Positions 25,847 through 55,845 are shown, counted from the stretch's first letter. The stretch: 64,000 bases of DNA from a virus (IMGVR_UViG_3300028805_000061); one strand, 5' to 3'. The notes: generated by a model from the letters alone, not told the origin. Numbers and translations: made by a program.

Positions 25847-26383
25847 ATGAATTATCATGATATTACTAAGTGTGATATGCTTAATGGGGATGGTTTAAGA
25901 GTAGTTTTATGGGTTTCTGGTTGTAGTCATCATTGTAAAGGTTGTCAAAATCCACAAACTTGGGATGGAAATTCTGGAATTCTCTTTGATGAAAAAGCTA
26001 AACAAGAATTAATTGAAGCTTTAAAACCAGATTATATTAGTGGTATTACCTTTTCTGGGGGTGATCCACTATATTTATACCACAGAAGAGAAATTTTAGA
26101 GCTAATTAAGGAGCTTAAAATTTTATTTCCTATTAAAACTATATGGCTTTATACTGGTTTTACTTTAGAAGAAATAATACAGTGGCCTATAGGAAAAGAA
26201 TTACTTTCTTTAATTGATGTTTTAGTAGATGGAAGATTTATTTTAGAAGAAAGAGATCCTAATTTACAATGGGTGGGGTCACCTAATCAAAGAGTTATTG
26301 ATGTACAAAAAACTCTCCAATCTTCACATATAATAAAACATTGTGAAGTATACTACGATAGTTATAAGGGTAAGAGATATTAA
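25847..26383 (+). CDS. nrdG: anaerobic ribonucleotide reductase activating protein (radical SAM)
   Basis: NGDGLRVVLWVSGCSHHCKGCQNPQTW (CxxxCxxC), ITFSGGDPL, DVLVDGRF, GSPNQRVID. Confidence 0.95.
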   Translation: MNYHDITKCDMLNGDGLRVVLWVSGCSHHCKGCQNPQTWDGNSGILFDEKAKQELIEALKPDYISGITFSGGDPLYLYHRREILELIKELKILFPIKTIWLYTGFTLEEIIQWPIGKELLSLIDVLVDGRFILEERDPNLQWVGSPNQRVIDVQKTLQSSHIIKHCEVYYDSYKGKRY

Positions 26384-26392
26384 ATAAAAAGA

Positions 26393-26445
26393 GGAAGTAG
26401 ATAATTATCTACTTCCAAAGAAGTTTGGTAAAATATTTTGAAGTT
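26393..26445. terminator. cassette A downstream end: 24-bp palindrome (probable bidirectional terminator) plus conserved 29-mer
   Basis: ggaagtagataattatctacttcc then aaagaagtttggtaaaatattttgaagtt (28/29 identical to 54320-54348). Confidence 0.8.
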
Positions 26446-26450
26446 CCTCC

Positions 26451-27080
26451 TTAATTTCGCTTTGTGAAGGTTAAAATATCTGTTGTATCACCATTACCCT
26501 GCTGACTATAGCGATTATATCCACAACCATAAAGTTCACCATCGTTAGTTAAGTACCATGTTGTTGTATTTGAACAAGCAAAATCTTTTACATTACTTGC
26601 TCTTTGAGTAAACCTTGTAACATCTGTTGTATCGCCTGAACCTTGTTGACCGTAATTATTCCATCCACAACCATAAAGTTCACCATCGTTAGTTAGATAC
26701 CATGTAACGCTACTTGAACAAGCAACTTGTGCTACATTACTTGCTCTTTGAGTAAAATGTCTAACACTTGATGTATTTCCTGAACCTTGTTGGCCATAGT
26801 TATTACCTCCACAACCATATAATTCACCGTTGTTAGTTAGATACCATGTTGTTATATCTTGGCCAATAATTTGTGCTACGTTACTTGCACGTTGGGTAAA
26901 GGTTAAAACATTCGCTGAACTTCCTGAACCTTGTTGATAATAGTAACTATATCCACAACCATAAAGTTTACCATCGTTAGTTACATACCAAGTTGTATAA
27001 TCTGAGCAAGCAAAATCTTTTACACCACCGGCAATTTTTCGAAATCCTCCAAGGGGTTCCAATTTTGTTTTTATACCCAT
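26451..27080 (-). CDS. RCC1/BLIP-II-like repeat protein (four 48-aa blades) with MGIKTKLEPLGG tag
   Basis: Four repeats of V..(F/V)ACS...TWYLTNDGELYGCG.N.Y.QQGSG....V..FTQRASN; AGGAGG RBS on the minus strand. Confidence 0.85.
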   Translation of the reverse strand: MGIKTKLEPLGGFRKIAGGVKDFACSDYTTWYVTNDGKLYGCGYSYYYQQGSGSSANVLTFTQRASNVAQIIGQDITTWYLTNNGELYGCGGNNYGQQGSGNTSSVRHFTQRASNVAQVACSSSVTWYLTNDGELYGCGWNNYGQQGSGDTTDVTRFTQRASNVKDFACSNTTTWYLTNDGELYGCGYNRYSQQGNGDTTDILTFTKRN

Positions 27081-27112
27081 AATAATTCACCTCCTAAAAT
27101 ATTTTATCAACA

Positions 27113-27156
27113 TAAAAATACCAGTTAAAAAAAATCCTATATAGGACACTCGAAAA
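27113..27156 (-). promoter_or_regulatory. cassette A upstream element (A8 tract plus TCCTATATAGGA palindrome)
   Basis: taaaaataccagtt-A8-tcctatataggacactcgaaaa; identical to 55800-55845 except tract length. Confidence 0.75.
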
Positions 27157-27236
27157 AGCTTTATCTTTTTAACAAAAAGAAAACATTTTTTTCATTTCTA
27201 TATATACTTATAAATAATTCAAATAGGAGAAAAGAA

Positions 27237-28037
27237 ATGAAGATAGATAAATTTCCATCTAGAATTCAAAGTATAATAGAAGAATTTGAATCAAAAGAAA
27301 ATCAGAAAAGATGGAGATATCTTTTAAAGATAGGTAATAAGACATTAGTAGCATCAAGAATAGAATTCAATGAAAATACAAATGAAGCATTTGTAAAATA
27401 TTCAGCGTCATCTTCAAATGGTTATAAAATAAATCCTTTATTCATTGAAAAGCTTTCTGATATACAAATAGAAAAAACAAATATTATTAGAAAGAAATTA
27501 GGATTAAGAGCACCATTAAAAAGAAGACCGATAGAAAGAGATGAATTAGGAATTCCCATTAAAAAACCAAGAAGAGAGAAAAAGAATAAAGAATTATCAG
27601 AATTAGAATTTAAAGCAATGTTTGACCCAAGATTTATTTCTAGTGAAACAAGAGATGAATTATTTGAAGAGAAAAATCTTTCTGGAGGAGCAAGATTACC
27701 AAAGAAAGCATTTAAAAAGATAAAACCTGAATTTAGAGAAGCCGTAAAATCTTTCCTTTCTAAATATATAGATTTACATACTATTACAGCTGATTATAAA
27801 AGAGATAATTATGGAACACTTTCATTAATAGTAGGAAAAACTTTTACTAATAATGGACAAATTGATCCCAGATTTAAAACATATAAAAGCTTTACTTTAA
27901 TACATAGACAAGGTAAACCTTATGTAAAAGTAATTCAGAATTCAGTGAAAACTGGAACAGATACTATATTTTATTTAATAAATGAAGATACTTTATTACA
28001 AGTTAGTAAAAGTCTTAGGTACAGAAATCGTGGTTAA
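27237..28037 (+). CDS. basic hypothetical protein
   Basis: AGGAG RBS; Lys/Arg-rich. Confidence 0.7.
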   Translation: MKIDKFPSRIQSIIEEFESKENQKRWRYLLKIGNKTLVASRIEFNENTNEAFVKYSASSSNGYKINPLFIEKLSDIQIEKTNIIRKKLGLRAPLKRRPIERDELGIPIKKPRREKKNKELSELEFKAMFDPRFISSETRDELFEEKNLSGGARLPKKAFKKIKPEFREAVKSFLSKYIDLHTITADYKRDNYGTLSLIVGKTFTNNGQIDPRFKTYKSFTLIHRQGKPYVKVIQNSVKTGTDTIFYLINEDTLLQVSKSLRYRNRG

Positions 28038-28200
28038 AGGAGGGTAAACAATGTCAAATGAACAAAATAATTTAAACATTAGAGAAATTGTAAAAGAAGT
28101 TGTTAAAGAAGAAATTAAACCCGAATTAGAAAAAATGAAACAACAACAAACTCAACATTTACAAGAAGGTAATATGTATTTGAATGAATAAAGGAATTTT

Positions 28201-28557
28201 ATGGAAGAAAAACAATTAGTTCCAGTACAAGAAAGAACTCTTAGGATATATAAACCCTTTATAAGATGTGCTACTTGTGTTAGAAATATAGATGGACAAA
28301 AAATGCAACATGGTTTTTATTCTAAGACATATTGTAATCAATTTAAAGAAACGAGACAAGATCAATACAGTGCCGATTATAATATAGAAAAAGATAGAAA
28401 ACTTGCACAACATTGTAAATATTATTTACCAGAAATAGGTACTATTGCTGATTTAACATATCTTGAACCTTACGAAATAGTAGATGATATGTTTAAATTA
28501 GATAAAGAACATGCTAAAAATTTAAGTGATTTATTTGGTAATAAGTTAAATAATTAG
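28201..28557 (+). CDS. Cys-containing hypothetical protein
   Basis: CATC...C...CKYY. Confidence 0.6.
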   Translation: MEEKQLVPVQERTLRIYKPFIRCATCVRNIDGQKMQHGFYSKTYCNQFKETRQDQYSADYNIEKDRKLAQHCKYYLPEIGTIADLTYLEPYEIVDDMFKLDKEHAKNLSDLFGNKLNN

Positions 28558-28621
28558 ATTTTAATATATTTAATAATATTTATATAAATAATAATGATTA
28601 AATATAAGGAGTTAATTTATA

Positions 28622-29401
28622 ATGACTATTTTTAATGGCTTACTAATAATAGCAACTATTTTATTTGTAGATCTTATTATAAACTATTTTTTAATAAATT
28701 ATAGTAATAAAAAATTTGAGAAATATCAAAATAAAATAGATGAATTAGAAAAAGATAATAGAAAATGTTTTGAACAAATTTCAGGTTTGTTAAATACTTC
28801 TGGTAAAACTATAAAATTAATTCAAAAATTTAAAAATCAATCAGGAAATAAATTTCAGAAAATAGATGAAGATTTAAAATCTATTATGAGAATGCATAAT
28901 GATTTAGTAGATATAGTTTATGAAAGTTTTGCTAATGTATATTGTGATCTTAATGAAGAAGATTGTTCTATTTGTGAATATTATGATAGATGTTCTAAAA
29001 GAGATTCCAGTAAAGAAAATGGATTTATAACTTATACAAAAGAACATCCCTCTGAAGATTCTTGTATAGCTTGTAATAGACCTATTAGTTATTCTTCAAT
29101 AATAATAGACCCAAATGATAAAGATTATTTGACTAAGTTAAAATCTACAATGTATAATTCAGGAGTACCAGAACAAGTAATTAGTCATTATTTAACATAT
29201 ATTAAGGCTCTATTAGAAAAATTGAATCTAGAAGGAAAATATATGGAAATTGCTTGGAATTTTAAAGAAACTGATGTAGTCAAAGGGGCTGGAATTATTA
29301 CTAATAAACCTATAGATAAAAATGAAATAGATAAAGAAAAACTAATAGATCCTAATTCAAAAATAGTTAAATCTTTAAATAAACTATATAAACAAGATTG
29401 A
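28622..29401 (+). CDS. membrane-anchored coiled-coil / Cys protein
   Basis: N-terminal TM helix, heptads, CSICEYYDRC and CIAC. Confidence 0.65.
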   Translation: MTIFNGLLIIATILFVDLIINYFLINYSNKKFEKYQNKIDELEKDNRKCFEQISGLLNTSGKTIKLIQKFKNQSGNKFQKIDEDLKSIMRMHNDLVDIVYESFANVYCDLNEEDCSICEYYDRCSKRDSSKENGFITYTKEHPSEDSCIACNRPISYSSIIIDPNDKDYLTKLKSTMYNSGVPEQVISHYLTYIKALLEKLNLEGKYMEIAWNFKETDVVKGAGIITNKPIDKNEIDKEKLIDPNSKIVKSLNKLYKQD

Positions 29402-29440
29402 TTTATCATTACACTAAAATTCAGAATTCCAGCAATAATA

Positions 29441-29472
29441 AAACCCTCTATAATATTAAAGGGTTTTTCTTT
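29441..29472 (+). terminator. intrinsic terminator
   Basis: aaaccct...agggttt plus ttctt. Confidence 0.55.
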
Positions 29473-29525
29473 GTGTTAACTATAAAAAATTCATAAATAC
29501 ATATATAAATTATAAGGAGAAATAA

Positions 29526-30101
29526 ATGACTTTAGAAGAAAATTTTAGTCTTGAACCTGATGAAATTCTAAAAGCTATAGAATTTTCAGTAGAGTCAAGA
29601 ATGAATTTAGAAAGTGATGAACAAGTTACAATAATAACACATCCTTTAACAATAAAAGCTATTAAAATAGGAATTGCTCAAGGTAAAATATTTAAAAATA
29701 TTTATTCAAGAATAATATTTTCTCCAGATAGTAATAGTAAACTTAGTGATTTAGTAATTATTCCAGACCATTTGATAGATGAAGTAGTTCAAGAAGAAAT
29801 AAAAAATCATTTAAATGTTGATAATGAAGTAAAAGAGAAATTGAAAATATTAAATGAAAAAATGGATATCCCTGAAGAAATATTAAATAGAATATCTACT
29901 CTTGAAGACAAAGACCTTACTAATGAAGAATTACAATTAAAATGTGAAATTCAAAATCTAATGTTAGATGTAGGAATGAATATTGATTTACATTTTTCTA
30001 ATACAGATAGTAAAGAACAAAAAGTAAATGAAATAGTAGATAAATTATTAAAAAATAATAAAATACAAAAAGTAGGATTAGAAGGAATTAATAATGACTA
30101 A
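29526..30101 (+). CDS. hypothetical protein
   Basis: AAGGAG RBS. Confidence 0.65.
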   Translation: MTLEENFSLEPDEILKAIEFSVESRMNLESDEQVTIITHPLTIKAIKIGIAQGKIFKNIYSRIIFSPDSNSKLSDLVIIPDHLIDEVVQEEIKNHLNVDNEVKEKLKILNEKMDIPEEILNRISTLEDKDLTNEELQLKCEIQNLMLDVGMNIDLHFSNTDSKEQKVNEIVDKLLKNNKIQKVGLEGINND

Positions 30102-30687
30102 GAAAAGAAAGAGTGAACTTAAAATAGGTTATAATGAACTAAAAAATGGTTGCCCTACTGGAGAAAATGTTTTAGATTTAAAGAACACACCAATCCCTAT
30201 AGAATCACTAAAAGTATTAATGACTGGAGACTCTAATCAAAAGTTTAGAGTATTATCAAAGAAGATAAATAGGGAAAATGTTAAACTAGTATTAAAACAT
30301 AGAGAAACCAATGAAAAACTAAAAATAGTTGCACCAATAGAATTTTTAGAATTTCACAAAATCCCTTATAAAAATCCCAAAATACCTACTAATAAATTAA
30401 TTGAAGGTGTTTTACAAGATAGAGTAAGAAATTGGGAATGTGAAGTAATAATTAAAGATCTATCACAAGAATATGACTTAGTTATTCTAATTGATATAGA
30501 TTCACAAAAAAGAATAGCTTGTAAAGTTCCTATAAAAGAGATTGAAAAAACTAAATTATATATAGAAAAATGTAAAACTTATAAACAAGCTAATTATTAT
30601 GATTATAATAAAATAAATATATGGAGGGAGAATGAATGGCAAAGAGAAGTAATGACTCGCCTAAACTTATTAAAATTAACCCGTTAA
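30094..30687 (+). CDS. hypothetical protein
   Basis: ORF track. Confidence 0.6.
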   Translation: MTKKRKSELKIGYNELKNGCPTGENVLDLKNTPIPIESLKVLMTGDSNQKFRVLSKKINRENVKLVLKHRETNEKLKIVAPIEFLEFHKIPYKNPKIPTNKLIEGVLQDRVRNWECEVIIKDLSQEYDLVILIDIDSQKRIACKVPIKEIEKTKLYIEKCKTYKQANYYDYNKINIWRENEWQREVMTRLNLLKLTR

Positions 30688-31268
30688 ATAATTCAGATGA
30701 AAGTTTGATTGCTATTGCAATTCTTAATGCTTTAATTATACTAAGAGCTAAAGAAAACAATTTAATAAAAATTCCAGAAAGAAAAGAATTAACTAAATTA
30801 CTAAAAAATGCAAAGTTAGATAATATATTAAAAGCTTTAGATGAGGTTAATGGTATTAAAATAAAAAAAGTATTAGGAGTAGAAGATACATCTCTCACTG
30901 GAATTGTTTATATAAACCATCCTTTAAAGGTATTACCTTGTTTAGTATATAGAAACCCCTCTATAAAAGACGGTCAAATAAAATTAGTTAATTCTGGTTT
31001 AGGAGATGATGAAGTTTTAATAAGTGAACAACTCTTTAATGAAAAATTGTTTGTAGATAATATATTTGCTTATCAGATATTTCTAAATACAGGCACTAAA
31101 GAATTTTTTAAAGATAAAGAATTAAGTTGTAATGATTGTAATCATTATAGTTTTAATTCAGAAGGAGAAGATATTTGTTTATATGATGATATGAACATAA
31201 AAGATTGTAATCAATGTTGTAATAAATTTATTGATTGTTTTAAATGGAGAATACCGAAAGGAGAATAA
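30636..31268 (+). CDS. hypothetical protein with C-terminal Cys cluster
   Basis: GGAGG RBS; CNDCNHY...C...CNQCCNKF. Confidence 0.6.
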   Translation: MAKRSNDSPKLIKINPLNNSDESLIAIAILNALIILRAKENNLIKIPERKELTKLLKNAKLDNILKALDEVNGIKIKKVLGVEDTSLTGIVYINHPLKVLPCLVYRNPSIKDGQIKLVNSGLGDDEVLISEQLFNEKLFVDNIFAYQIFLNTGTKEFFKDKELSCNDCNHYSFNSEGEDICLYDDMNIKDCNQCCNKFIDCFKWRIPKGE

Positions 31269-31269
31269 A

Positions 31270-31956
31270 ATGTCAACAATTCCTGCATTTATAAATGCAA
31301 TTTTTACTCTTAACAAAAAAGGAGAATACCCTTTATATGAAGGTAATATTGATGGTGGTTATACAAAAGTTCTTATAGTTTCTAAAATAGCTTCTGGCTA
31401 TAATACTAGATATTTTAAAGTTAAACAAATTATTGCTTTAGAAGGACAACAAGCTATAATTCAAACTTTTGATCTCCCTTCTCAAGAATTTGCTTATAGA
31501 TTGATTGAAAAATCTATTACTGAAAATGCATATATACAAGGAGGAAATGATGAAGAAAATATACCCATCGTTATTACAGGACAACAACAGCAACAATCAA
31601 AACAACCAGCAAGAATATCAAAGCCTAATATTATTGATCCAGAAAGAATTGGAGAAGATACAGTTTACGCAGAATACAACAATAATAACGTTAATACCTA
31701 TCAGCCAGTTGTCACAGCACAGTCTAGAAAACTTGTTGAAGGACATTCAAAAAGACAAAATATGGACCTCCCAGATTACAATGACGCCGGATTTGATCAA
31801 CTTGCAGCCTTCACCGGTACCCAGTCAGATGAATTCTCCAGTGGAGAAATTAAGATTGCCAACATGTCCAGTTTTGGAAATGGATCAAGCTCAAATAGAA
31901 ATAGAACTAAAGGCAACTACTCTTCCCTTGAAGATGCACTTGACTCTGGATTCTAG
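31270..31956 (+). CDS. hypothetical protein with long disordered region and acidic C-terminal tail
   Basis: ATG 31270 after AAGGAG; Q/N-rich linker; ends SSLEDALDSGF. Confidence 0.65.
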   Translation: MSTIPAFINAIFTLNKKGEYPLYEGNIDGGYTKVLIVSKIASGYNTRYFKVKQIIALEGQQAIIQTFDLPSQEFAYRLIEKSITENAYIQGGNDEENIPIVITGQQQQQSKQPARISKPNIIDPERIGEDTVYAEYNNNNVNTYQPVVTAQSRKLVEGHSKRQNMDLPDYNDAGFDQLAAFTGTQSDEFSSGEIKIANMSSFGNGSSSNRNRTKGNYSSLEDALDSGF

Positions 31957-32114
31957 ATTACCTAATACAATTTTAATAGATACTAATATAAAGATAGTAA
32001 AAGAAAATAATATTGAAGTAATAGTTAAAAGATTAGTAATATCTAGTCTTTTTTCTAATCTTTTAATAATACCAGAAAGTTTTGCTGATTTTATAAGAAA
32101 GAGAGAAGGTATAA

Positions 32115-32339
32115 ATGTCTGATTTTGATAAAGATTGGGGATTTGAATGTGATCAATGTGGTCAAACAGTTGGTGGTGGGATTTATGATTTTGATGAATC
32201 TCTTGAACTAAGAAAACAAGAAGGTTGGATTAATAGAAAGATAGATGGTGAATGGTATTCCTTTTGTTGTGAAGAATGTTATCAAGACTGGGTAGCAGAT
32301 CATCAATATAGACCGACTCCGAGAAAAATTCATAAATAA
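32115..32339 (+). CDS. small zinc-binding protein
   Basis: FECDQCG...GW...W.SFCCEEC. Confidence 0.65.
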   Translation: MSDFDKDWGFECDQCGQTVGGGIYDFDESLELRKQEGWINRKIDGEWYSFCCEECYQDWVADHQYRPTPRKIHK

Positions 32340-32382
32340 GTTAAATTTACAATAAATACTTATATTTTCTGGAGTAATATTT

Positions 32383-32697
32383 ATGAATAATAGACAACTA
32401 ATTGAATCTCTTGAAAAATATACTAAGAAAATTCAGGAAGTTTCTGTGAATAAATGGCAAAGAGGTGCTAAAAATTCTTTACCAGGTAGAGAATTTGTTA
32501 ATCTAAAAAATACAGAACTAACATTAGACCCTGACTATTATTCTGATGAACAGAAGCAAAAGATTTTAAATAAAAGATTTAAAGATGCTCAAAGATATAC
32601 TTATGCCAATAAAATAGCTGGATTAGATTTAAAAGATTTTGACACTAATAAAATACCAGCTAGAACAATGCAAAAAGCTTTAAGGAGTTATAAATAA
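32383..32697 (+). CDS. putative internal head protein
   Basis: MNNRQLIESLE...IQE leader nearly identical to MDNRTLIESLE of 24311. Confidence 0.6.
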   Translation: MNNRQLIESLEKYTKKIQEVSVNKWQRGAKNSLPGREFVNLKNTELTLDPDYYSDEQKQKILNKRFKDAQRYTYANKIAGLDLKDFDTNKIPARTMQKALRSYK

Positions 32698-34094
32698 TGA
32701 GATTTAATGAAGTTGATATAGAAGTTAAACATTCTGGTTTACTTGAAGTACCTGCTGGTAAAGAAGTAGACCAATTACCACAATCACATTTTCAAAAATT
32801 GATTGATAAAAAAGGTTATGAAGCTATTATTAGAGGACTTACTAATTTAGAAGTTTGGAATAAGAATAAAAATCCTAAACTTAGTCAGTGGGCTTCTAAT
32901 ATGGCAGATAAATTAAAAGTAGTTAATAAGAAAGATGAAGCTTATTCTGGTAAGCTTTTTGAAATGAATGCTAAATTAGCTAAAAAACTAGGTATTAAAA
33001 CAGTAACTGGTCTAAAGAAAGCTGGACAATATGCTAAAGATACAGTTGCTAAATCAGCTGATACTGCAAGAAATGCAATTGTAGCTGGTGCTGTAGCTCC
33101 AGTAGGAGCAGCTATAGCTCAAAAATATAGTCATAAGGATAAAAAGAAAGAACCAAGATATACTGCTGCAGAGGTAGCTGCTCTAGCTGCTGCAATGAAA
33201 AACAAAAATGAATCCCTTTCTAATAAATTATTTTCTTATTTGACTATATTAGAAAAAGAACAAAAAGAAGAATCTGGAGTTAAAAAAGTTGCAAAAGGAG
33301 CTGCTAAAGGAGCTGGTATAGGTTTAGCTGGAGGAACAGCTTTAGGAGCTGGGGTAGGACATACAGTAGGAAAGGCTTTGACTGGTGGACTCAAAGGTAA
33401 TTATGCCACTGGATTAGCTGGTGCTGCTACTAAAGGGGTTAGAGCTTTATCAACTGGAGCTGGTGCTGCTGGTGGAGCAGCATTAGGTTTAACAAGAGGT
33501 TTAGTTGGGGGAGCTTTAATAGCTGGAGGAAAACATTTATATGATAAACACAAAGCTAAAAAAGAAATTTCTAAAAAGAATGAATCCTTAATTGAAGCTT
33601 TAAATAGATTAAAAAGTATTTATGAAGAAGAAGGAATCCCTAAAAAGAAAAGAGTTTTAACTCCTGAACAAAAAGCAAGAAGACAAGAAAGAAGGAGATT
33701 GAGAAGACAATTAGAAAAACAAGGTATTTCTACTTCTAAACCTCGTTCTGGTCCAGTTAAAACCATACAAGGAGAACCTAATTTAGCTAAATCTATTGAA
33801 AATGCTAAAAAAGCAAAACAAACTACTAATACAGCAAAAACTGCTGGAGCTGCTTCATCAACAGTAAATAAGACTGCCGAAACTACTAAGAAATTTGTTT
33901 CAGATGGGGTTAAAAAAGCTACAGGAGCTACTAAAAATACAGTTAATAAAACTCTTAGACATTCACAAGCTTTAAAGAAAGTTTTAAACCGAGCTTCTTT
34001 AAGAGGGGGATTAGCTGGTGCTGCTATTACAGCTGGAGTAGGAGCTGCTGGATTAGCTGCTAAGAAAATGTATGATAAAAACAAAAAGAAATAA
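32697..34094 (+). CDS. cationic glycine-zipper polyprotein (putative internal head protein)
   Basis: MRFNE start; two KNESL...(L/Y)E(E) linkers separating K/A/G-rich modules ending in YDK motifs. Confidence 0.7.
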   Translation: MRFNEVDIEVKHSGLLEVPAGKEVDQLPQSHFQKLIDKKGYEAIIRGLTNLEVWNKNKNPKLSQWASNMADKLKVVNKKDEAYSGKLFEMNAKLAKKLGIKTVTGLKKAGQYAKDTVAKSADTARNAIVAGAVAPVGAAIAQKYSHKDKKKEPRYTAAEVAALAAAMKNKNESLSNKLFSYLTILEKEQKEESGVKKVAKGAAKGAGIGLAGGTALGAGVGHTVGKALTGGLKGNYATGLAGAATKGVRALSTGAGAAGGAALGLTRGLVGGALIAGGKHLYDKHKAKKEISKKNESLIEALNRLKSIYEEEGIPKKKRVLTPEQKARRQERRRLRRQLEKQGISTSKPRSGPVKTIQGEPNLAKSIENAKKAKQTTNTAKTAGAASSTVNKTAETTKKFVSDGVKKATGATKNTVNKTLRHSQALKKVLNRASLRGGLAGAAITAGVGAAGLAAKKMYDKNKKK

Positions 34095-34105
34095 GGAGAT
34101 CAAAA

Positions 34106-34759
34106 ATGCAATTTAATGAAATATTTTCTAATACCCCAATAGATGAATCTATCAAGGGTGAAGCTATTAAACAAGGTGCTAAAAAAGCTGCAAGATATGC
34201 TAGAGTAATGAGTAAGAAAGCAATAAATAAAACTAAAAAATATTTAAAACAACCTGCTACTAAAGGACAAGTAATAGGGGCTGCTTTAGTAGGGTCAGCT
34301 GTAAGAGGTAAAGCTGAAAAGATTCATCAAGCTAAATTAGCTAAAAAACAAAAGAATGAATCGTTAACTCCCTTTAAAGAAAAGAAAACAGTAATAGCTA
34401 AAAAATACAAAGGAAAAGATTTTAAGAAAATATTTGGTAAAAATAATATAGCTAAAAAAGCTACTAAAAATGAATCATTAGTAGAAAAACTTGAAAGAGT
34501 TACAAATAATGTTAGAACAACTAATGAAGCTAATTTAGCTGGAATAGGTAAATCAGCAGTAAATGGTTTAAAAACATTTGGTAAAAATATTGGTGATACA
34601 GCTAAAACAGTAGGAGGAGCAATTAAAAAACACCCAGTAAGAACAGCAGCAATTGCAGGTACTGGTTTAGCTGGTTATGGAGCTTATAAAGGAGTTAAGA
34701 AAGCAGTAAATGGAGCTAAGAAAGCTGGTAAAGCTGCTTATCAAGATTGGAAAGTATAA
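34106..34759 (+). CDS. cationic polyprotein (putative internal head protein)
   Basis: MQFNE start; two KNESL linkers; ends GKAAYQDWKV. Confidence 0.7.
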   Translation: MQFNEIFSNTPIDESIKGEAIKQGAKKAARYARVMSKKAINKTKKYLKQPATKGQVIGAALVGSAVRGKAEKIHQAKLAKKQKNESLTPFKEKKTVIAKKYKGKDFKKIFGKNNIAKKATKNESLVEKLERVTNNVRTTNEANLAGIGKSAVNGLKTFGKNIGDTAKTVGGAIKKHPVRTAAIAGTGLAGYGAYKGVKKAVNGAKKAGKAAYQDWKV

Positions 34760-45121: not shown

Positions 45122-45158
45122 AAAAATTAGATTAAAATAAAGTTGAAAGAGAAAAGTT

Positions 45159-46292: not shown

Positions 46293-46293
46293 T

Positions 46294-46611: not shown

Positions 46612-47472
46612 ATGAATTTATCAGAAAAACTAAATAAAGTAATAGAAAAACTAAATAATAAAATAGAAGCAATTCAAGTAAGTTATTATGATAAACTGAA
46701 TGAAGATGCTACATTGTATTATTTCTATTACAATCAAAACAATGATCCTACTATAGTAAGTTGTCCTATAGGAGGAAAACCAACTAGTGAGTCTTTAGCA
46801 ATATCTTTACCTAGTTCAGTACATCAAGATTTAGACTTTAGACCAAATTCAACTATTTCAGAAAGTCAACTTGAATCAGTAATTAAGACATTTAAGATTT
46901 TGACTGAAAACGTGTTAAGAAAAAATGTAGAAAATGGTAGAGTAATTCGTAAAAGAGTTACTACTATAGAAAAACCAAATACTATAAAACCCTTAGTAAA
47001 TAAGATTAAAAGTAAAAAAGCTGGCTTATATGCACAAACTGCAGCAGCAAGAATTAAAAGGGAACGTTCTAATAACGTTAGAGATATATTAAATTTAGAT
47101 AAACAGGCTAAGAAAGATAAGTCCGTTTTAGAGAATAAGGAGAATATAATGAATAGAAATGACTTTAATCGTCGTACTTATAAGTTACATGAAACTTATA
47201 TGACGTATCCTCAAGCTCGTTCAATTGCTGATGATATTGTAAATACATTATATACAAAGAAACTTGCTTCTTACAATATTAAATACCCACAAACAGGTAC
47301 TTGTGTTGTAGATCAAAAAGGTTTCTCCATTGATTTTGGAATGATGAATCGTAAATATATGGCAAAAGAACAACTCCTAGACTATATTGCTAAAGATATT
47401 CTAGGAAGATGTTCTAGAGGCGAAGAATTACCTGAAGAAGTTGCAAAGAAAATTACGCTTCATCAGGTTTAA
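46612..47472 (+). CDS. putative prohead core protein with possible internal start at 47149
   Basis: Directly upstream of protease; multiple LxE sites; basic ARIKRERS segment; in-frame ATG 47149 after AAGGAG. Confidence 0.55.
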   Translation: MNLSEKLNKVIEKLNNKIEAIQVSYYDKLNEDATLYYFYYNQNNDPTIVSCPIGGKPTSESLAISLPSSVHQDLDFRPNSTISESQLESVIKTFKILTENVLRKNVENGRVIRKRVTTIEKPNTIKPLVNKIKSKKAGLYAQTAAARIKRERSNNVRDILNLDKQAKKDKSVLENKENIMNRNDFNRRTYKLHETYMTYPQARSIADDIVNTLYTKKLASYNIKYPQTGTCVVDQKGFSIDFGMMNRKYMAKEQLLDYIAKDILGRCSRGEELPEEVAKKITLHQV

Positions 47473-47486
47473 GGAGATAATGTTAA

Positions 47487-48989: not shown

Positions 48990-49014
48990 TCATTTTTCTT
49001 CTTATATAAACTAA

Positions 49015-49052
49015 TAAATAACCCTTTGATTAAAAAATCAAAGGGTTATTTA
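49015..49052 (+). terminator. intrinsic terminator
   Basis: taaataaccctttgatt-aaaa-aatcaaagggttattta. Confidence 0.75.
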
Positions 49053-49098
49053 ATGTAAATTCTTATTATATCATATATAAAATCAAAAGGAGGAAGTA

Positions 49099-49737
49099 AT
49101 GTCAATATTTTTCAAAAATACTAGTAAAACTAAATCAATTAGTTTAAGATATGGTGATGGTAATAATAATATGATTCAATTAAAACCTGGCCAACAACAA
49201 CCCATACCTTCAATATTTAATAAACAAAAACTACAATCTTATTTACGTTTATTTAAAGATTTGAAAATAGTAGAAGAACTTGAAGAAATAAAAGAAGAAA
49301 ATAATGATATAACAGGAGAAGTAAATGGAGATTCTATTAAAGATAATTCAGAAAGTCAATTATCTACACCAGACGATACCTCAGGAGAACAGCAAGATAA
49401 TCTTAATTCACAAGATGATAATCAACAGACAGAAAATCAAGAGGGAAACAATGATCCAGTAGTAAATGGACCTGTTGAAGGGGAACAGCCAGAAAATCAA
49501 GAAGGGGACAATGATCCAGTAATAAATGGGTCTGTTGAAGGAGAACAGACAGAAAATAGAAATACTGAAGATCAAGAAAAAGATAAACTTCCTATATATA
49601 CTGAAAAAGAATTAAATAAATTATCTGCTGGAGAAATAAAAGAGATTGCTAAAAAATTAGGTATTGAAGTTACAGAAGATTCTACTAAAAAAGCATTAAT
49701 ACCTGTTATATTAAATAAACAAGGAAAATTAGAATAA
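49099..49737 (+). CDS. acidic low-complexity protein with C-terminal Rho-N/HeH domain
   Basis: YTEKELNKLSAGEIKEIAKKLGI....TKKALI. Confidence 0.7.
   Translation: MSIFFKNTSKTKSISLRYGDGNNNMIQLKPGQQQPIPSIFNKQKLQSYLRLFKDLKIVEELEEIKEENNDITGEVNGDSIKDNSESQLSTPDDTSGEQQDNLNSQDDNQQTENQEGNNDPVVNGPVEGEQPENQEGDNDPVINGSVEGEQTENRNTEDQEKDKLPIYTEKELNKLSAGEIKEIAKKLGIEVTEDSTKKALIPVILNKQGKLE
49425..49557 (+). repeat. 60-bp in-frame tandem repeat (about 2.2 copies)
   Basis: QTENQEGNNDPVVNGPVEGE / QPENQEGDNDPVINGSVEGE / QTEN. Confidence 0.85.
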
Positions 49738-50648
49738 TGAATAATATGACAAAATATTCTAAAGAGATTATAGAAGAATTGTATATTAATCAAAATAAAA
49801 CTAGAAAAGAGATTTGTGAAATTTTAAAAATTTCTTGTAAAAAGTTTTGTAAGATGATAAAAGATTATGATATATATAAATCTAAAGATAAAATAATTTC
49901 TAGAATAAAACAGTCTAACATAAATACTTATGCTACTGGGAAACCTCAAGAAAAAATAAAACAAACTTTTATAAAAAATTGGGGAGTTGAAAACCCCAAT
50001 AAATTACTTACAATTCAGAATAAGAAAATTAATACTTCTTTAGAAAGATATGGAGAATCCCATCCCAATAAATCTAAAGAAGTAAAAATTAAAATTTCTC
50101 AAAGTAATAAAAAAGTATATGCTACTGGAAAACCTCAAATAAAACAACAAGAAACTTTTCAAAAAAAATATGGATATAATACCCCTCTATTAATTCCTAA
50201 AATTAGAGATAAGATTAGAGAAGGTTTTGATTCAGGTATTACACAACTGAAAGACTATAAAACCAAAAAGAAAAATAAATCTTTTAATAAATCAAAACCA
50301 GAAGAAGAAGCTTATCAATTACTCTTAACAAAATTTCCAGTAGAAGATATTGAGAGACAATATAGATCTGAATTATACCCATTTAATTGTGATTTTTATA
50401 TCAAATCCTTAGATCTATTTATAGAATGTAATTTTCATTGGACACATGGGAAATACCCCTATACGAATATTAAAGACCCTTTATTAGAAAAATGGGAAAC
50501 AAGAAAAGATAAAAAATTCTATCAAAAAGCAATTGAAGTATATACTAGATTCGATCCTTTAAAAAGAAAAATGGCTCAACAAAATAATCTTAATTGGATT
50601 GAATTCTTTACTTTAGCTGATATTTACAATTATATAAAGGAGTTATAA
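49737..50648 (+). mobile_element. free-standing homing endonuclease (PD-(D/E)XK / Vsr-DUF559-like)
   Basis: N-terminal HTH, repeated K.KQT....(W/Y)G...P units, SKPEEE...RQY...YPFNCDFYI..LDLFIECNFHWTHG. Confidence 0.7.
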
Positions 50649-51544
50649 TGTTATTATTAGAAGAAGCAATAAGAACAGTTGTTACTTCTCTGGGTAATCA
50701 GATCATTCCACTAGAAGCTTTTTCTCTAGATAAAGATACAATACAGCAGGATATGTTTTTACCTACATTAAGAGAATATCAAGAGTATTTTCCAAACATA
50801 AAGACTAAAACTATTACTGCAAATTCATTAGGAGGATCTGATATAGTAATTAATTTACCTGATTGTATTGGATCTCCTTTGAGTATGAGATTTGGGGGCT
50901 ATCCTAATGTACCTCCTTTGAATAGTCTTTATTCTAAACCAGATTGGAGTTGGGATTTTCAAACTAAAACTCTTCATACTGTAATGGGAGGAGGCCCCTG
51001 GATACTTACTTATGCAGCTAATTATACTTTAGAAAATGCTCAAGTAATAGAGTCTTTCCAGACTCTTAAAGATGAAGATGAAATCTCCTTTAAAATAAGA
51101 GGTGAGTTCAAGGGTAAATCTTTAAAGATTACTAGGAAGAAAGATAAACTTTCAATGAAAGTAGTTGATGTTTATAAAAAAGATGGACTCACGTATGGGG
51201 AATTAGAAGGTCAATTAGGAGCTGGTAGAATTTGTTTAAATGATTTAAGATGTAAACTTGAATTAGATTCTACTAGAGACGATGAGCTTATTATAGAATA
51301 CATTTCTAAATATAAAGCTATACAAGAGTTAACTTTTCAAAATATGGAATTTCTTATTTGGTTTGCAAGTAAATTACTTACTTCAATAGGTTCTCTTAAA
51401 CTAATGACTCAATTAGATGGTATGCCATTTAATATTGCAATTGATGATCTAAGAACAAGAGGTCTTGAATTAGTTAATCAAGTAGAAACTGATTTAAAAG
51501 TACAAAAACAAGAATTTTATTCTTGGACAGGAAGTAAATATTAG
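50648..51544 (+). CDS. neck protein (T4 gp13-like)
   Basis: N-terminal LG.......E..LD...I motif and C-terminal IG..K...QL.G.P..I..DDL..RG.E....VE..L resemble gp13. Confidence 0.55.
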   Translation: MLLLEEAIRTVVTSLGNQIIPLEAFSLDKDTIQQDMFLPTLREYQEYFPNIKTKTITANSLGGSDIVINLPDCIGSPLSMRFGGYPNVPPLNSLYSKPDWSWDFQTKTLHTVMGGGPWILTYAANYTLENAQVIESFQTLKDEDEISFKIRGEFKGKSLKITRKKDKLSMKVVDVYKKDGLTYGELEGQLGAGRICLNDLRCKLELDSTRDDELIIEYISKYKAIQELTFQNMEFLIWFASKLLTSIGSLKLMTQLDGMPFNIAIDDLRTRGLELVNQVETDLKVQKQEFYSWTGSKY

Positions 51545-51553
51545 GAGTAGATA

Positions 51554-52207
51554 ATGCCAGATAATTTTAAAGAATCACCTGATTATAAAGCTGATCAACA
51601 TATTTCAAAAGAGAATCTAAAAGATTTAGCATTATCTACAACCGATGTAGTTGATGCTTATAATTCTGATAGGGCTGATAGACTAGAGAATAATTGGACA
51701 GCTAAGTCTCTTTATGCTTCTACTATTAGTTTTAAAGCTTGGAGAAAGAAATATTCTAAGCCAGGAAATATAGTTTTAAAGAAACCTACTCCCTTTGCTG
51801 GTACTTCTTCTATAATGTTTAATGCTACAATGAAGGGTGTTACACAGTATCCAGATTTACATAGAGTAGTAATTATGTTTTCAGGTTTGAAATTTGCTAA
51901 AGAACCTTTTAAAAATTGTATTGATGTTGAATATAAGGGCAAAGTTTATTATGTAGAAAAACCCAGTCTTAATAAAACTACTATAAGAGTTAGATGTTCT
52001 TGTAAAGATTTTTATTTCTGTTTTAGTTTATGGGATTATTTGAATAGAGCAATAGTAGGTCCTAAACCTAAAAAATATACAAGAAAAACACCTCCTCCAA
52101 GTCAAGGAGGTAGACCTTATGTAAATCCTGGAAAGATACCTGGTTTATGTAAACATATATTTTGGTTAATGAGATATTTAAAACAAAAGGGTTGGGTAAG
52201 AACATAA
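51554..52207 (+). CDS. SWIM zinc-finger protein
   Basis: RVRCSCKDF...GLCKHI. Confidence 0.75.
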   Translation: MPDNFKESPDYKADQHISKENLKDLALSTTDVVDAYNSDRADRLENNWTAKSLYASTISFKAWRKKYSKPGNIVLKKPTPFAGTSSIMFNATMKGVTQYPDLHRVVIMFSGLKFAKEPFKNCIDVEYKGKVYYVEKPSLNKTTIRVRCSCKDFYFCFSLWDYLNRAIVGPKPKKYTRKTPPPSQGGRPYVNPGKIPGLCKHIFWLMRYLKQKGWVRT

Positions 52208-52227
52208 AATTTTAAGGAGCAAATAAG

Positions 52228-52602
52228 ATGAATAATACAGACTTAACAGAGAAACTTTGTCTACATATAATTAGAAATTCCAACCCTTCAGAAATATCAG
52301 AAGGAATAGCTGGTAAAGAAGCTATAAGATTTTTAAAAGACTCTGGTATACTTATTCTTCAAATTAAGAAATTAAAAGAAAATCAGGAACTGTTTTTAGA
52401 CTTGATTGAACCTGTAGGGTTTGTTTCCATATTAAAAGAAGATAATAAATATGTAATAACAATAGTTATTAAAGGTCAAAAAAGTAAAGTTATAATAGTA
52501 GAAAAACCATTAGAAGTTTATAAAAAGATTTTTGATATATTTAAAGATCAAATGACTACTGGTATTAAGAATTTGAAATTAAAATATGAAGTCCATAATT
52601 AA
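52228..52602 (+). CDS. hypothetical protein
   Basis: AAGGAG RBS. Confidence 0.6.
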   Translation: MNNTDLTEKLCLHIIRNSNPSEISEGIAGKEAIRFLKDSGILILQIKKLKENQELFLDLIEPVGFVSILKEDNKYVITIVIKGQKSKVIIVEKPLEVYKKIFDIFKDQMTTGIKNLKLKYEVHN

Positions 52603-52614
52603 TAAAGGCACAAT

Positions 52615-52920
52615 ATGCTAAATAATACACTTAATGAAATATTTAATGAAGTAGATAAAATAGACACACATACAAATAACCAATGTATGAATTGTGGAGC
52701 TAATTTACCCAATGAATATGCTACTAAATGTGAAGTATGTGGTTATGATTGTATAAGTGAATTTAGTTGCCCATACAAAGTAATAAAACAAATCCCTATA
52801 CAAAATTCTCCAGTTACTTTAGCATTTTGTGAATTATCTAAAAAACAATGTAATGTACAAGGGTTAGACTTTGAAATCTGTTCAGTATTTAGAAGTTTAG
52901 ATTCATTAAAGGATGATTAA
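52615..52920 (+). CDS. zinc-ribbon protein
   Basis: CMNCG...CEVCG plus further Cys. Confidence 0.65.
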   Translation: MLNNTLNEIFNEVDKIDTHTNNQCMNCGANLPNEYATKCEVCGYDCISEFSCPYKVIKQIPIQNSPVTLAFCELSKKQCNVQGLDFEICSVFRSLDSLKDD

Positions 52921-53614
52921 TATGTTTAATAATTATGATAGTTTTTTTCATTTAGATTTATGGGAAAGCTGTGAAAATGAAACTACTGGCTTTCCCATAA
53001 AAAGAAATAATTCTCTTAATAGAATAAATCAAATAATAGAAAAATTTGATAGCTTAAATGAAGCAATTGAAGTAGATGGTAAATGGTATAATAATTTAGA
53101 AGATGTATATCATGTAGGGTCAGCTAAGAAATTTGATGATGCCAGATTTTTATTAAATACCACTAATCCCATGAATTTGAAAAAGAAATATTCTAAAGAT
53201 AATCAATATCCTATAGATTTCTTTATTCAGTTCATTGATCCAAAAACTCTTAAAGTAGTTTCCTTTATGATAGTATATGAACAAAATCCTTTTGGGGAAG
53301 GTTCTTTTGGTGGACAAAAAAATTGTTGTAGATTGATTCTTTATAAAACAAAAGCTTTTGCAATGGAAAAAACTGATACAAAACATAGATTTGCTTTCAT
53401 AGTAAAAAATGCAAAAGATATTAAAAATATTAAAGAAGATCCTTCTTTAAGAATATTATGGCAAGATGAACCAAGAAAAACTATCTCCAATCTTAAACCT
53501 TCTGAGATTCATAATGAACTATTAGCTGCTGTAAAAACACTCAATTCAGCTGGTTATATAGTAATAGATGATTTTGATGATACTATAGAAAGAATTTTAA
53601 ATGCCACAAGATAA
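52913..53614 (+). CDS. hypothetical protein
   Basis: ORF track; SLNE/AIE site. Confidence 0.6.
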   Translation: MINMFNNYDSFFHLDLWESCENETTGFPIKRNNSLNRINQIIEKFDSLNEAIEVDGKWYNNLEDVYHVGSAKKFDDARFLLNTTNPMNLKKKYSKDNQYPIDFFIQFIDPKTLKVVSFMIVYEQNPFGEGSFGGQKNCCRLILYKTKAFAMEKTDTKHRFAFIVKNAKDIKNIKEDPSLRILWQDEPRKTISNLKPSEIHNELLAAVKTLNSAGYIVIDDFDDTIERILNATR

Positions 53615-54032
53615 AAGAACAGCTACATATAAAATCTTAAAAGCTAATATCCCTATAATTGAATCCTTATTAGCTGTAAAAGAAAAATCAGAAGGCTATA
53701 GATGTTTAGTATATTTTCCAATAGGTACTGATTCTGTTTATGGAGTATTAGATCAATATACTTACTATAAGAAACCTGATTTAGATAAACTATTTGTTTG
53801 TTTGTCTGCTGTTCAAGAATCCTGGCAAGGTACAATAGATGGTACACAATATGATCCATTTTTAAGTGATCCTCCAGTAATATTAACTACATTTGAAAAG
53901 AAATTACCTATAATGAGTAAAGTAGTTCTTTATTATAATGAAGGAATTAGAATTTTTAGAGTAGCTTTTCATAGATCTTATGATGGTGCTAAACCTTATT
54001 TAATAAGAAATATGTTACAACCATTAAGTTAA
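53601..54032 (+). CDS. hypothetical, possible head-closure protein
   Basis: Size and context only. Confidence 0.4.
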   Translation: MPQDKRTATYKILKANIPIIESLLAVKEKSEGYRCLVYFPIGTDSVYGVLDQYTYYKKPDLDKLFVCLSAVQESWQGTIDGTQYDPFLSDPPVILTTFEKKLPIMSKVVLYYNEGIRIFRVAFHRSYDGAKPYLIRNMLQPLS

Positions 54033-54093
54033 TTTTAAAGTTATAAGCTTACATCCCTTATTAAAATATGAAATTAATAGGAGAAAATTTAAT

Positions 54094-54297
54094 ATGGATG
54101 AAGAATTAGAGAATAATTATAATACTTCTTATATAGTTATTCAGGAAATTGATACAATGGTAACAAAATCTATTACTGTTTTAGGAGAATTTGAAAATGA
54201 AGAAGAGGCTAAAGAATTTATAAAGTATTATAAAACTATTCAAAAGCCTGTTTCTGGCTATATAAAATATAGAATATCTCTTTTTTATAGAAAATAA
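54094..54297 (+). CDS. small hypothetical protein
   Basis: AGGAG RBS; LGEFENEEEAKEFIK. Confidence 0.6.
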   Translation: MDEELENNYNTSYIVIQEIDTMVTKSITVLGEFENEEEAKEFIKYYKTIQKPVSGYIKYRISLFYRK

Positions 54298-54299
54298 AA

Positions 54300-54348
54300 G
54301 GAGAACATAAATGTTCTCCAAAGAAGTTTGATAAAATATTTTGAAGTT
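54300..54348. terminator. cassette B downstream end: hairpin plus conserved 29-mer
   Basis: ggagaacat-aa-atgttctcc then aaagaagtttgataaaatattttgaagtt. Confidence 0.8.
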
Positions 54349-54352
54349 TAAA

Positions 54353-54442
54353 CTAATATTTCTTAGTAAAAGTCCAGACATTAGCAGTACTACTATCACC
54401 TTGCTGACTATAAAAATATTTCTTATATAATTTCTTTTTCAT
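54353..54442 (-). pseudogene. 29-codon mini-ORF carrying the last half-blade of an RCC1-repeat gene (remnant)
   Basis: MKKKLYKKYF-YSQQGDSSTANVWTFTKKY*; last 19 aa align with YSQQGNGDTTDILTFTKRN* of 26451-27080; AAAGGA RBS. Confidence 0.75.
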
Positions 54443-54458
54443 AATTTATATCCTTTCG

Positions 54459-55769
54459 TTAATAAGGTTTGCAAGAGAGGGAAGCACCAAAGTTACTATA
54501 GGTAGAAGGACTATCGCTTAAAGGGCTGTTGTAAGCCAGATACACAGAGAAAAGACCACCATTGGATATGGCATTGTAGTAGCCACCAAAATAAGCACAA
54601 CCAACGAGCGAGCTGGAAGAGCTCAGGGCGCAGCCGACTTGGTCGCAGTAGTAAGTATAATTTGAACCAGGGGTTGGATAGCCTGAAGAAGGAAAGTACC
54701 ACATAATACCATCTGAAGTATTAGGCACTCCTAAATTGCATAAATTTATACCTCCAACTCCATTATATCCAGTATACGATTTATAACCTGGGCTACTACT
54801 TGTTGGGTCATAACTAATAGCAGTGGTTCCATCTGCTGTATAATTACACAACTTATAAAATATTTTTGATTGATAACAAGTTAAACCATTTATCCATTTA
54901 TTACAATTACCCCATAAGTTTTCCATACCAAAGAATTTAACAGGTGTAGTGCTTGATGAAGTATTATTTGTAGAATAGAACATAGGCTTATCTTTTAATG
55001 AACCAGTAGAAGTCGTTTTTGTACCGCCTACAACTCCACCTCCACATTTACTTTGGCTATCTCTTGATTTAAACATTAAAATAAATAACATCTGTATCAT
55101 TTGTAATGTTCCTAAGTCAAGAAAATCCCAACCGTTACCATTTGCTTGAGCATAAGTTCTCATTGTAGTACCAGCAACTGTATTTACTAGAACAGTCCGT
55201 CCTGCTAAACTTCTTAATGTACTACCTGTCAATGATGGTTCAAAAGCTGCTGTATAAATTTCATCAAGTAAAATACCATTATTGTTATAATGTGAATAAC
55301 AATGGTATTTGCCATCTACATTTTCAGGAGCTATAAAAACATATTGATATCTGCCTGTTGCGTCGGTGCTTAAATTAGTACCATCTGCTGAATTTGAAGT
55401 TCTAAATTTAAGCCAAACTTGTGGAAAACCTATCATGCAGTTTCCTTTGTATTGTCTATTACTTATATCACTTTCAGTTCCATCAAGTTTCTTTGTAAAA
55501 TCATTATGATCTAATTCGTAATCAACTGTTCCATCATACTTTAACATTACAGGTCTTGGCTGAAAGAAAGCATTTTCCCAACTACCATAATCTAATTGAC
55601 CTGTTGTAAAATCCATGCTCGCAGGGGTATAATCAGCGTTATTGCCAAAATATGTTACTGCTGTTGTGGGATCAGAATTTGTGGTGTCTATTATAAAGCA
55701 ATATTCTTCTGCGTTTCCACCTCTTTTTATTAAACCCCCTAAAGGTTCCAATTTTGTTTTTATACCCAT
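54459..55769 (-). CDS. receptor-binding / tail-fibre-type protein with C-type lectin (DGR-target-like) C-terminus and MGIKTKLEPLGG tag
   Basis: VKFFGMENLWGNCNKWING and terminal GG.Y.....GGLF...L.....S....NFGASLSCKP are typical of CLec-fold DGR targets; AAGGAG RBS. Confidence 0.8.
   Translation of the reverse strand: MGIKTKLEPLGGLIKRGGNAEEYCFIIDTTNSDPTTAVTYFGNNADYTPASMDFTTGQLDYGSWENAFFQPRPVMLKYDGTVDYELDHNDFTKKLDGTESDISNRQYKGNCMIGFPQVWLKFRTSNSADGTNLSTDATGRYQYVFIAPENVDGKYHCYSHYNNNGILLDEIYTAAFEPSLTGSTLRSLAGRTVLVNTVAGTTMRTYAQANGNGWDFLDLGTLQMIQMLFILMFKSRDSQSKCGGGVVGGTKTTSTGSLKDKPMFYSTNNTSSSTTPVKFFGMENLWGNCNKWINGLTCYQSKIFYKLCNYTADGTTAISYDPTSSSPGYKSYTGYNGVGGINLCNLGVPNTSDGIMWYFPSSGYPTPGSNYTYYCDQVGCALSSSSSLVGCAYFGGYYNAISNGGLFSVYLAYNSPLSDSPSTYSNFGASLSCKPY
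54462..54700 (-). other. DGR variable-region-like segment
   Basis: GC spike (34/60 G+C at 54601-54660) and many NNC codons for Y/S/N/G/C at the 3' end of the CLec gene; no template repeat or RT seen in window. Confidence 0.5.
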
Positions 55770-55799
55770 TTTACTAATCTCCTTTTTAAAAGTATTTTT

Positions 55800-55845
55800 T
55801 AAAAATACCAGTTAAAAAAAAAATCCTATATAGGACACTCGAAAA
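55800..55845 (-). promoter_or_regulatory. cassette B upstream element (A10 tract plus TCCTATATAGGA palindrome)
   Basis: taaaaataccagtt-A10-tcctatataggacactcgaaaa. Confidence 0.75.

Follow-up and report, generated by a model that had tools for sequence, protein, structure and literature searches.

Two genes in a 64,000-nucleotide stretch of the virus record IMGVR_UViG_3300028805_000061 (in the following the window, by which this whole stretch is meant) raise the question how proteins of different kinds came to share a short common start, and which purpose this start serves. Gene A (26451..27080) and gene B (54459..55769) both lie on the minus strand, in a window that carries almost all of its genes on the plus strand, and their products begin with the same 12 amino acid residues. 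The window corresponds to bases 43849-107848 of a 144,741 bp IMG/VR genome with a guanine plus cytosine (GC) content of 27.7 %, that of an AT-rich, 145-kb, contractile-tailed phage. In a preliminary description A and B were read as a modular display system, in which a fixed expression frame and a docking peptide accept interchangeable binding domains. The present analysis adds a probable socket for the peptide, a proposed parent gene (gene C) and the direction in which the binding domain of B was swapped. It is proposed that the tagged proteins are heads that plug by their 12-residue peptide into a socket at the tip of the two long tail fibres of the phage, of 579 and 1281 amino acids; the probability of this reading is put at roughly 60 %.

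A conserved peptide ahead of unrelated binding domains

The common start of A and B, MGIKTKLEPLGG, is encoded at 27045..27080 and 55734..55769, respectively (both minus strand), and the first 26 coding nucleotides of the two genes are identical, as had been described. The earlier count of two copies was correct for A and B and was extended by a whole-genome search, which added the tagged genes C and D and brought the set to four. Gene C (genome 31391-32611, plus strand; 406 amino acids) holds the third occurrence of the tag DNA. It is identical to A and B over the same 26 nucleotides, and codons 9-12 of the three tags show synonymous differences only. Gene D (genome 128039-129223, minus strand; L005:7040-8224) encodes an immunoglobulin (Ig)-like plus Hint protein and is discussed below. 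Likewise, the statement that A and B are the sole minus-strand units holds within the 64-kb window and fails for the whole genome, which has further minus-strand genes.

Behind the tag, the products are of different types. In the A protein (209 amino acids) the tag and a short linker precede four RCC1-like blades; its earlier assignment to RCC1 repeats was borne out by a Pfam match (RCC1_2, E 6.7e-23) and by four units of 48 residues. C was found to have eight blades and A exactly four, and a dimer of A would equal the number of C. At the DNA level A and C share 84 % identity across the N-terminal 29 codons and 70-81 % across the blades. The B protein (436 amino acids) is composed of the tag, the residues LIKR and a Mtd/TaqVP-like receptor-binding protein with a C-terminal C-lectin fold. 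It matches phrog_5302 ('tail protein', E 6.6e-51). The C-lectin fold noticed earlier holds in the predicted structure (predicted template modelling score, pTM, 0.87), which Foldseek aligned over its whole length with TaqVP (5vf4; E 4.7e-9, probability 1.0, 414 aligned columns) and also matched to Mtd (1yu0; E 0.024). Sequence and profile searches of the PDB with the B family gave nothing meaningful. Residues 1-19 of the B model are disordered (predicted local distance difference test, pLDDT, below 50), which is consistent with a free peptide followed by a linker.

The tag is not confined to this genome. A degenerate tag DNA pattern was searched in IMG/VR and in JGI metagenomes; its matches are at gene starts only, and it also matched one contig of a Gastranaerophilales metagenome-assembled genome (MAG). 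The tag was found in 11 unrelated foreign metagenomic loci, ahead of at least six payload types. The payload survey (foreign loci L006-L017 plus P0003, P0006, P0007 and P0013) revealed RCC1 propellers, Mtd-like C-lectins, BspA-type leucine-rich repeat (LRR)/DUF285 proteins, Ig-like plus Hint proteins and at least two unannotated families behind it. Close metagenomic homologues of B begin with MGIRTKLNPLGG, MGIKTRLNPMGG or MGIRTKFNPMGG, and others are untagged.

Fifteen copies of the tag were aligned, and identity and codon counts were taken from the 13 independent ones. The consensus is M-G-I-[KR]-T-[KR]-[LF]-[NE]-P-[LMF]-G-G, in which G2, I3, T5, P9, G11 and G12 are invariant. Pairwise amino acid identity amounts to 75 % in tag codons 2-12 against 9 % in codons 13-24, and the differences between tag codons comprise 331 synonymous and 215 non-synonymous ones. 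The tag is followed by a Gly/Ser/Lys-rich linker of variable length. Judged by this codon pattern, the tag is a peptide that is maintained by selection. The modular display of the preliminary description can therefore be kept in the form of a discrete, selected peptide of 12 residues, a flexible linker and swappable binding domains, found in 11 foreign loci with at least six payloads. Throughout the family the tag probably acts as an N-terminal docking peptide. A role as a double-glycine secretion leader was rejected; the hydrophobic positions of the tag are out of register with the leader consensus, and among the genes noted in the loci examined there was none for a C39 peptidase or an ABC transporter.

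Gene D carries its tag internally. The motif GIRTKFNPMGG follows an N-terminal extension of 122-124 residues, and with the loose threshold of the first scan this motif alone could have been chance. Two findings led to its acceptance: all positions (11/11) agree with the tags of L008 and L010, and from the internal tag onward D can be aligned with an Ig-like plus Hint protein of L006 that starts with the tag (38 % identity, E 5e-51). The C-terminal end of D is a Hint/intein-like domain (Pfam Intein_splicing, E 3e-6). D would be a fibre accessory protein that bears a self-cleaving or self-ligating domain.

A candidate socket at the C-terminus of the tail fibres

A partner for the tag was suggested by the neighbouring genes. 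In 6/7 loci that had been selected by their tag, the gene directly upstream of the tagged gene ends in a conserved domain of ~105 residues, with the consensus ...YTFEL..MST..LTFP..V.WQDG..PD.S..G.Y..FRT.D.G..W.GNLQG.W. This domain forms either the C-terminus of a long fibre or a stand-alone protein of 127 amino acids. Both long fibres of the phage, that of 579 and that of 1281 amino acids, end in it, and gene C starts 60 bp past the stop codon of the gene for the shorter one. A profile search with the domain yielded 3,775 clusters (50 % identity) at E ≤ 0.001. In the best 150 listed the match lies at the C-terminal end or a few residues from it, save for three or four in which it lies further in. 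Pfam has no family for this domain.

The same linkage was found when fibres were picked by the socket domain alone. Five loci were informative, one further contig ending too early to show the next gene. In three of the five the next gene is tag-initiated, starting with MGIRTKLNPLGG (L015), MALRTKLNPMGA (L016) and MSIKTKYNPLGG (L017); in L019, which is more distant, it starts with MSTLVTSFTPLGS, a diverged form of the tag (TSFTPLG). The stop codon of the fibre gene and the start codon of the next gene overlap (TAATG) in L015, L016 and L019, i.e. in 3/4 of the reverse-test loci with the tag or its diverged form. In prophage L013 the fibre end has diverged and the B homologue is without the tag. 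As far as gene order can tell, the linkage between the tag and the fibre domain is established.

The predicted structure of the domain (pLDDT 90.5) had as its ten best matches in the PDB only phage spike, baseplate or connector domains, the next, unrelated match having a Z of 2.5. The highest values were obtained for the Pa223 spike (Z 7.4), the Solidus tailspike (Z 6.4) and the KP1 baseplate (Z 6.2); further matches are residues 80-180 of CBA120 TSP4-N (Z 5.3-5.4), the T4 baseplate (Z 5.3) and T4 gp9 (Z 5.0). Co-folding of three socket domains with residues 1-40 of B gave a score of 0.52 against 0.02 for the best of 3 controls, which weakly supports their association. Of 80 solved complexes 58 attained the mark used in this comparison, as did 2 of 110 mismatched pairs; those passing with a score of 0.60 or under were only 7 of the 80 complexes, and both of the mismatches. 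In the runs contact agreement was at least 46 % and the pLDDT of the partner at least 33.

In the arrangement that is proposed, the tag would dock in the ~105-residue domain, a predicted beta-sandwich, at the C-terminus of the long tail fibres, and would be followed by the linker and then by one of several unrelated binding domains. With the socket at the C-terminus of the fibre, the fibre tip would carry exchangeable host-binding heads.

Several observations weigh against this arrangement. The presence of the tagged proteins in the virion and their contact with the fibre are inferred. The Z values of the socket fold are middling (5-7.4) and do not prove homology; no link to T4gp10-like domains was found by sequence or hidden Markov model (HMM), and sequence and profile searches of the PDB with the domain returned nothing meaningful. 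One of the three co-fold runs scored 0.03. Furthermore, the socket-bearing fibre of L020 is followed by a DUF4376 gene and not by a tagged gene, and the tagged gene of L011, as well as units A and B, does not adjoin a fibre gene. A strictly N-terminal plug would not predict the internal tag of D.

The DUF4376 gene of L020 points to another possible partner. The tag may be a docking or recognition peptide for a DUF4376/tail-fibre-assembly-like protein, or for some other site on baseplate or fibre, although this is considered rather unlikely. A DUF4376-like gene comes after the tagged genes in L006, L007, L010 and L016 and directly after the fibre in L020. In the window such a gene is located ~850 bp from unit B (56614..57159, plus strand); it is similar to the gene after the tagged RCC1 gene of L007 (BLASTP E 4e-22), and its homologue in L016 matches DUF4376. 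Gene order alone cannot tell this partner from the fibre domain, for which the co-folding support is weak. However, the stop/start overlap ties the tagged gene to the fibre-domain gene and not to the DUF4376 gene, the stand-alone 127-aa fibre-domain proteins of L012 and L014 are encoded directly before tagged genes, and in L013 the typical fibre end and the tag were lost together. Docking on the fibre domain is therefore preferred.

L012 (CANQCO010000058.1, 1-1470, minus strand), in which a stand-alone socket protein is accompanied by a tagged Mtd-like gene, belongs to the Gastranaerophilales MAG. On this bacterial contig they adjoin accB/accC and a DUF2130-like gene. L012 represents the remnant or the edge of a prophage and hints at the host group of these phages, for which Gastranaerophilales is one lead. 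The stand-alone socket proteins and a neighbouring tail-collar protein (L014:1230-2080, P0122 and P0121; L012:1090-1470) were furthermore found to have the N-terminal motif M.F.DTI..VG..II.LV in common. Given this shared motif, the fibre may be assembled from a number of small parts that have a docking end each. The N-terminal 122 residues of D were also tried as a socket-like domain and rejected (hhalign probability 0.1 %, no PHROG match); D is thus no 'Rosetta-stone' fusion of the tag and socket partners.

Units A and B: a duplicated frame and a replaced body

A and B are paralogous, self-contained transcription units. Each consists of a 5' promoter/operator-like element, a ribosome-binding site, the 12-codon tag, the payload, a 3' element and an intrinsic terminator. 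The features reported for the two units were all found in their places, including the stop codons of the flanking plus-strand genes and the sharp edges of identity. The ribosome-binding region of B resembles that of C. The 5' element is formed in both units by TTTTCGAGTGTCCTATATAGGA, a T-run (T8 in A, T10 in B) and AACTGGTATTTTTA. In unit A (27113..27156, minus strand) it resolves into TTTTCGAGTG, the 12-bp palindrome TCCTATATAGGA, T8 and AACTGGTATTTTTA, and the element of unit B (55800..55845, minus strand) is the same except for T10. The two elements differ solely in the length of the T-run that separates the palindrome from the GGTATTTTT box, 8 in A (27127-27134) and 10 in B (55814-55823); a diverged copy before D has a run of 11 (L005 near 8260), and a partial copy precedes a gene for an HNH endonuclease. 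What had been called a 5' hairpin is the 12-bp palindrome, for which a stable stem-loop is impossible. A promoter/operator-like role of the element is inferred from its position and conservation, because a sigma-70 consensus scan of the element was not over shuffled expectation, a further point against the proposal, and an Rfam search of units A and B gave no RNA family. A common -35/-10 was sought across A, B and the HNH gene and was not found.

The 3' element had been given as a 29-mer with 28/29 identities. It is indeed shared, and its actual extent is a 32-mer of which 31/32 positions are identical (unit A, 26414..26445; unit B, 54317..54348; both minus strand). The distinct GGA...TCC hairpins behind it were confirmed and, together with their T-runs, both score as intrinsic terminators. 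The hairpin of unit A (26393..26416, minus strand) has a 10-bp stem and a minimum free energy (MFE) of -14.9 kcal/mol (z -2.85), that of unit B (54300..54319, minus strand) an 8-bp stem and an MFE of -11.1 kcal/mol (z -3.38). In unit A the 3' element (26425-26439) is complementary over 15 nt (14/15) to the 5' untranslated region (UTR; 27096-27110), built on the palindrome AAAATATTTT. A real pairing of these UTR segments was rejected and the match taken as AT-rich chance, because it is not kept in B.

The frame has been duplicated within the genome, in agreement with the earlier view that the unit is copied to new loci. The 5' element is present four times and the 3' element three times. Full copies of the frame were found in A, B and D, in the last with diverged 5' and 3' elements and a hairpin; the 5' part alone, with 21/22 positions identical, occurs in the fourth place, before the untagged HNH endonuclease gene (192 amino acids; genome 126294-126872, minus strand, in the region 126294-126914, L005:5295-5915). 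This gene lies directly after the gene for the 1281-aa fibre and has neither a visible Shine-Dalgarno sequence nor a 3' element. It may be the replacement of another cassette body or the source of the 5' element.

A trace of an earlier payload was found in unit B. Its 3' UTR contains 19 codons plus a stop codon (YSQQGDSSTANVWTFTKKY*; 54353..54412, minus strand) that align without gaps, stop on stop, with the last 20 codons of A, with TATAGTCAGCA in common at the nucleotide level. With an upstream ATG (54442-54440) this RCC1 fossil makes up a mini-ORF (open reading frame) of 29 codons, MKKKLYKKYF plus the fossil (54353-54442, minus strand), which is preceded by GAAAGGA. An untagged homologue of B, P0010, starts with MKKKGGNAEEYCF, and B itself reads tag, LIKR and GGNAEEYCF, so that the start of P0010 marks the fusion point in B after codon 16. 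The fossil and the untagged start of P0010 show that B is a former A-like RCC1 unit, of which the body was replaced by an Mtd-like gene that gained the tag thereby. The unit thus presents a clean, dated case of a receptor-binding head that was swapped within a fixed frame.

The following history would account for these relations. The RCC1 gene C, right after the gene for the 579-aa fibre, would represent the parental type; a shortened copy of C would have gained the antisense frame and become A; and in a further copy of the frame an untagged Mtd-like gene of another phage would have taken the place of the body, giving B and leaving the fossil behind.

The last 250 nt of gene B (54459-54708) have a GC content of 44.8 %, compared to 33.4 % in the rest of the gene and 27.7 % in the genome. 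This GC-rich end codes for the C-lectin segment, which in proteins of the Mtd/TaqVP type constitutes the variable region. B as an active target of a diversity-generating retroelement (DGR) was rejected: the genome has no RVT_1 match, and the last 320 nt of B have no second copy. With neither a reverse transcriptase nor a template repeat in the genome, B is not diversified here, and its 3' end may be an orphaned former DGR target.

Instead of ordinary duplication, A and B might be copies of a non-autonomous mobile cassette, spread for example by repair after HNH endonuclease cleavage at shared ends, a possibility raised in the preliminary description and considered improbable here. Mobility would fit the four 5' and three 3' copies, which are spread across 58 kb and are all antisense to their neighbours, the sharp edges of homology, the HNH endonuclease gene behind the same 5' element, and the GC content of A, B and C, ~2 standard deviations above the mean of the genome's genes. 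However, A and B share neither terminal inverted repeats nor target-site duplications; their borders have short AT-rich matches only in common, at chance level, and each unit is bounded by a regulatory region and a terminator of the ordinary kind. The ORF map and the genes examined, a part of the proteome, revealed no transposase, integrase or reverse transcriptase, and the HNH enzyme is the sole nuclease in the vicinity. Four assemblies carry B; the gene order given for one of them shows B in the same context, and for the remaining three similar places were reported. The 5' and 3' elements were not found outside this genome in IMG/VR, where an exact search was made for the 5' element, or in INPHARED, where a nucleotide search with units A and B gave no match; related-locus searches with single proteins (B; tail tube) found no close relatives.

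That the shared start is kept for translation initiation only, after a one-off duplication and gene replacement, and that the peptide has no function, is highly improbable. The 26 nt identical in A, B and C would be expected under selection, but equally after gene conversion or a duplication of recent date. In the 13 independent copies, however, the peptide was kept through many synonymous changes, which exclude that these loci recently acquired a common DNA segment by recombination, whereas the 12 codons behind the tag vary freely. Unrelated contigs have the peptide fused to at least six payloads of unrelated kinds, and in D it is internal, where no role in initiation is possible.

Relation to known systems

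The architecture had been thought undescribed, which cannot be maintained, as short N-terminal docking peptides that act on a T4gp10-like branching domain are known (PMC6872550; PMC13352976). Latka et al. described an adapter or primary receptor-binding protein (RBP) with a T4gp10-like branching domain, to which secondary RBPs attach by a conserved N-terminal peptide (PMC6872550). The conserved peptides measure 7 and 11 residues in K1-5 and 29 residues in KP32 (PMC6872550). The peptide of KP32 is needed for incorporation and is able to carry a foreign enzymatic domain (PMC13352976). The systems of K1-5/SP6 (adapter gp37), G7C (gp66/gp63.1) and KP32 (RBP1/RBP2) resemble the present one in the short N-terminal peptide on unrelated RBPs, in a separate protein with a beta-sandwich docking domain, for which there is a candidate here, and in payloads that are exchangeable between phages. 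Their partner genes are linked in a tail-fibre module, and such linkage was also found here (6/7 and 3-4/5 loci, and gene C). However, the candidate socket is located at the extreme C-terminus of a fibre or in a 127-aa protein and not in an N-proximal T4gp10-like tailspike domain, and neither peptides nor domains show sequence similarity to those systems. The payloads are binders of the lectin, propeller and LRR type instead of depolymerases, two of the tagged genes are antisense and dispersed, each with its own promoter-like element and terminator, and the binding is putative.

The socket model also resembles TSP4-N of CBA120 (Ackermannviridae) and T4 gp9/gp10, domains which connect fibres or spikes to each other, although identity is 9-14 %, no HMM relation was found and the position in the protein is another. 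The payload of B has the same overall architecture as TaqVP and as Mtd of Bordetella phage BPP-1, the latter being a separate protein at the distal ends of the tail fibres; B differs from both by its 12-residue tag. Small proteins that are encoded after the fibre gene, bind the C-terminal end of the fibre and supply or modulate receptor binding are also represented by the tip adhesin gp38 of T2/S16 and by Tfa of Mu/P2, a tail-fibre assembly protein that remains on the tip of the fibre. These bind via a folded, conserved N-terminal domain, in place of which a 12-residue peptide is found here, and no homology to them was detected. Finally, A and B are like morons in being monocistronic, antisense between unrelated plus-strand genes, provided with their own terminator and GC-richer than the genome. 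Morons usually encode lysogenic-conversion functions, whereas the products of A and B are probably accessory proteins of the virion, and the two units are paralogues built on one frame, with a putative promoter.

If docking as proposed here is correct, both halves of a plug-and-socket system would be named for a large, little-studied group of gut phages, and a very common unannotated fibre domain would be given a function. It would also explain by which route the virion acquires RCC1 propellers, Mtd-like lectins, LRR proteins and Hint-domain proteins, and would provide a handle of 12 residues to attach chosen binding domains to phage fibres. A wider generalization is offered tentatively and is thought to be less likely than the docking itself. 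The fibre domain of the 3,775 clusters could be a general socket and peptides of the T-x-[FL]-x-P-[LM]-G type its universal plug, and this phage could have relocated extra heads from the fibre operon to antisense units under separate control, each of which has a palindromic operator and a T-tract of variable length, so that the mix of heads on the fibre tips, and with it the host range, could be regulated or varied independently of fibre synthesis.

The region of the fibre accessory genes contains one more gene, between the HNH gene and D. It encodes a family-2 glycosyltransferase (genome 126968-127969, plus strand; L005:5969-6970; Pfam E 3e-17) that is GtrB-like by PHROG.

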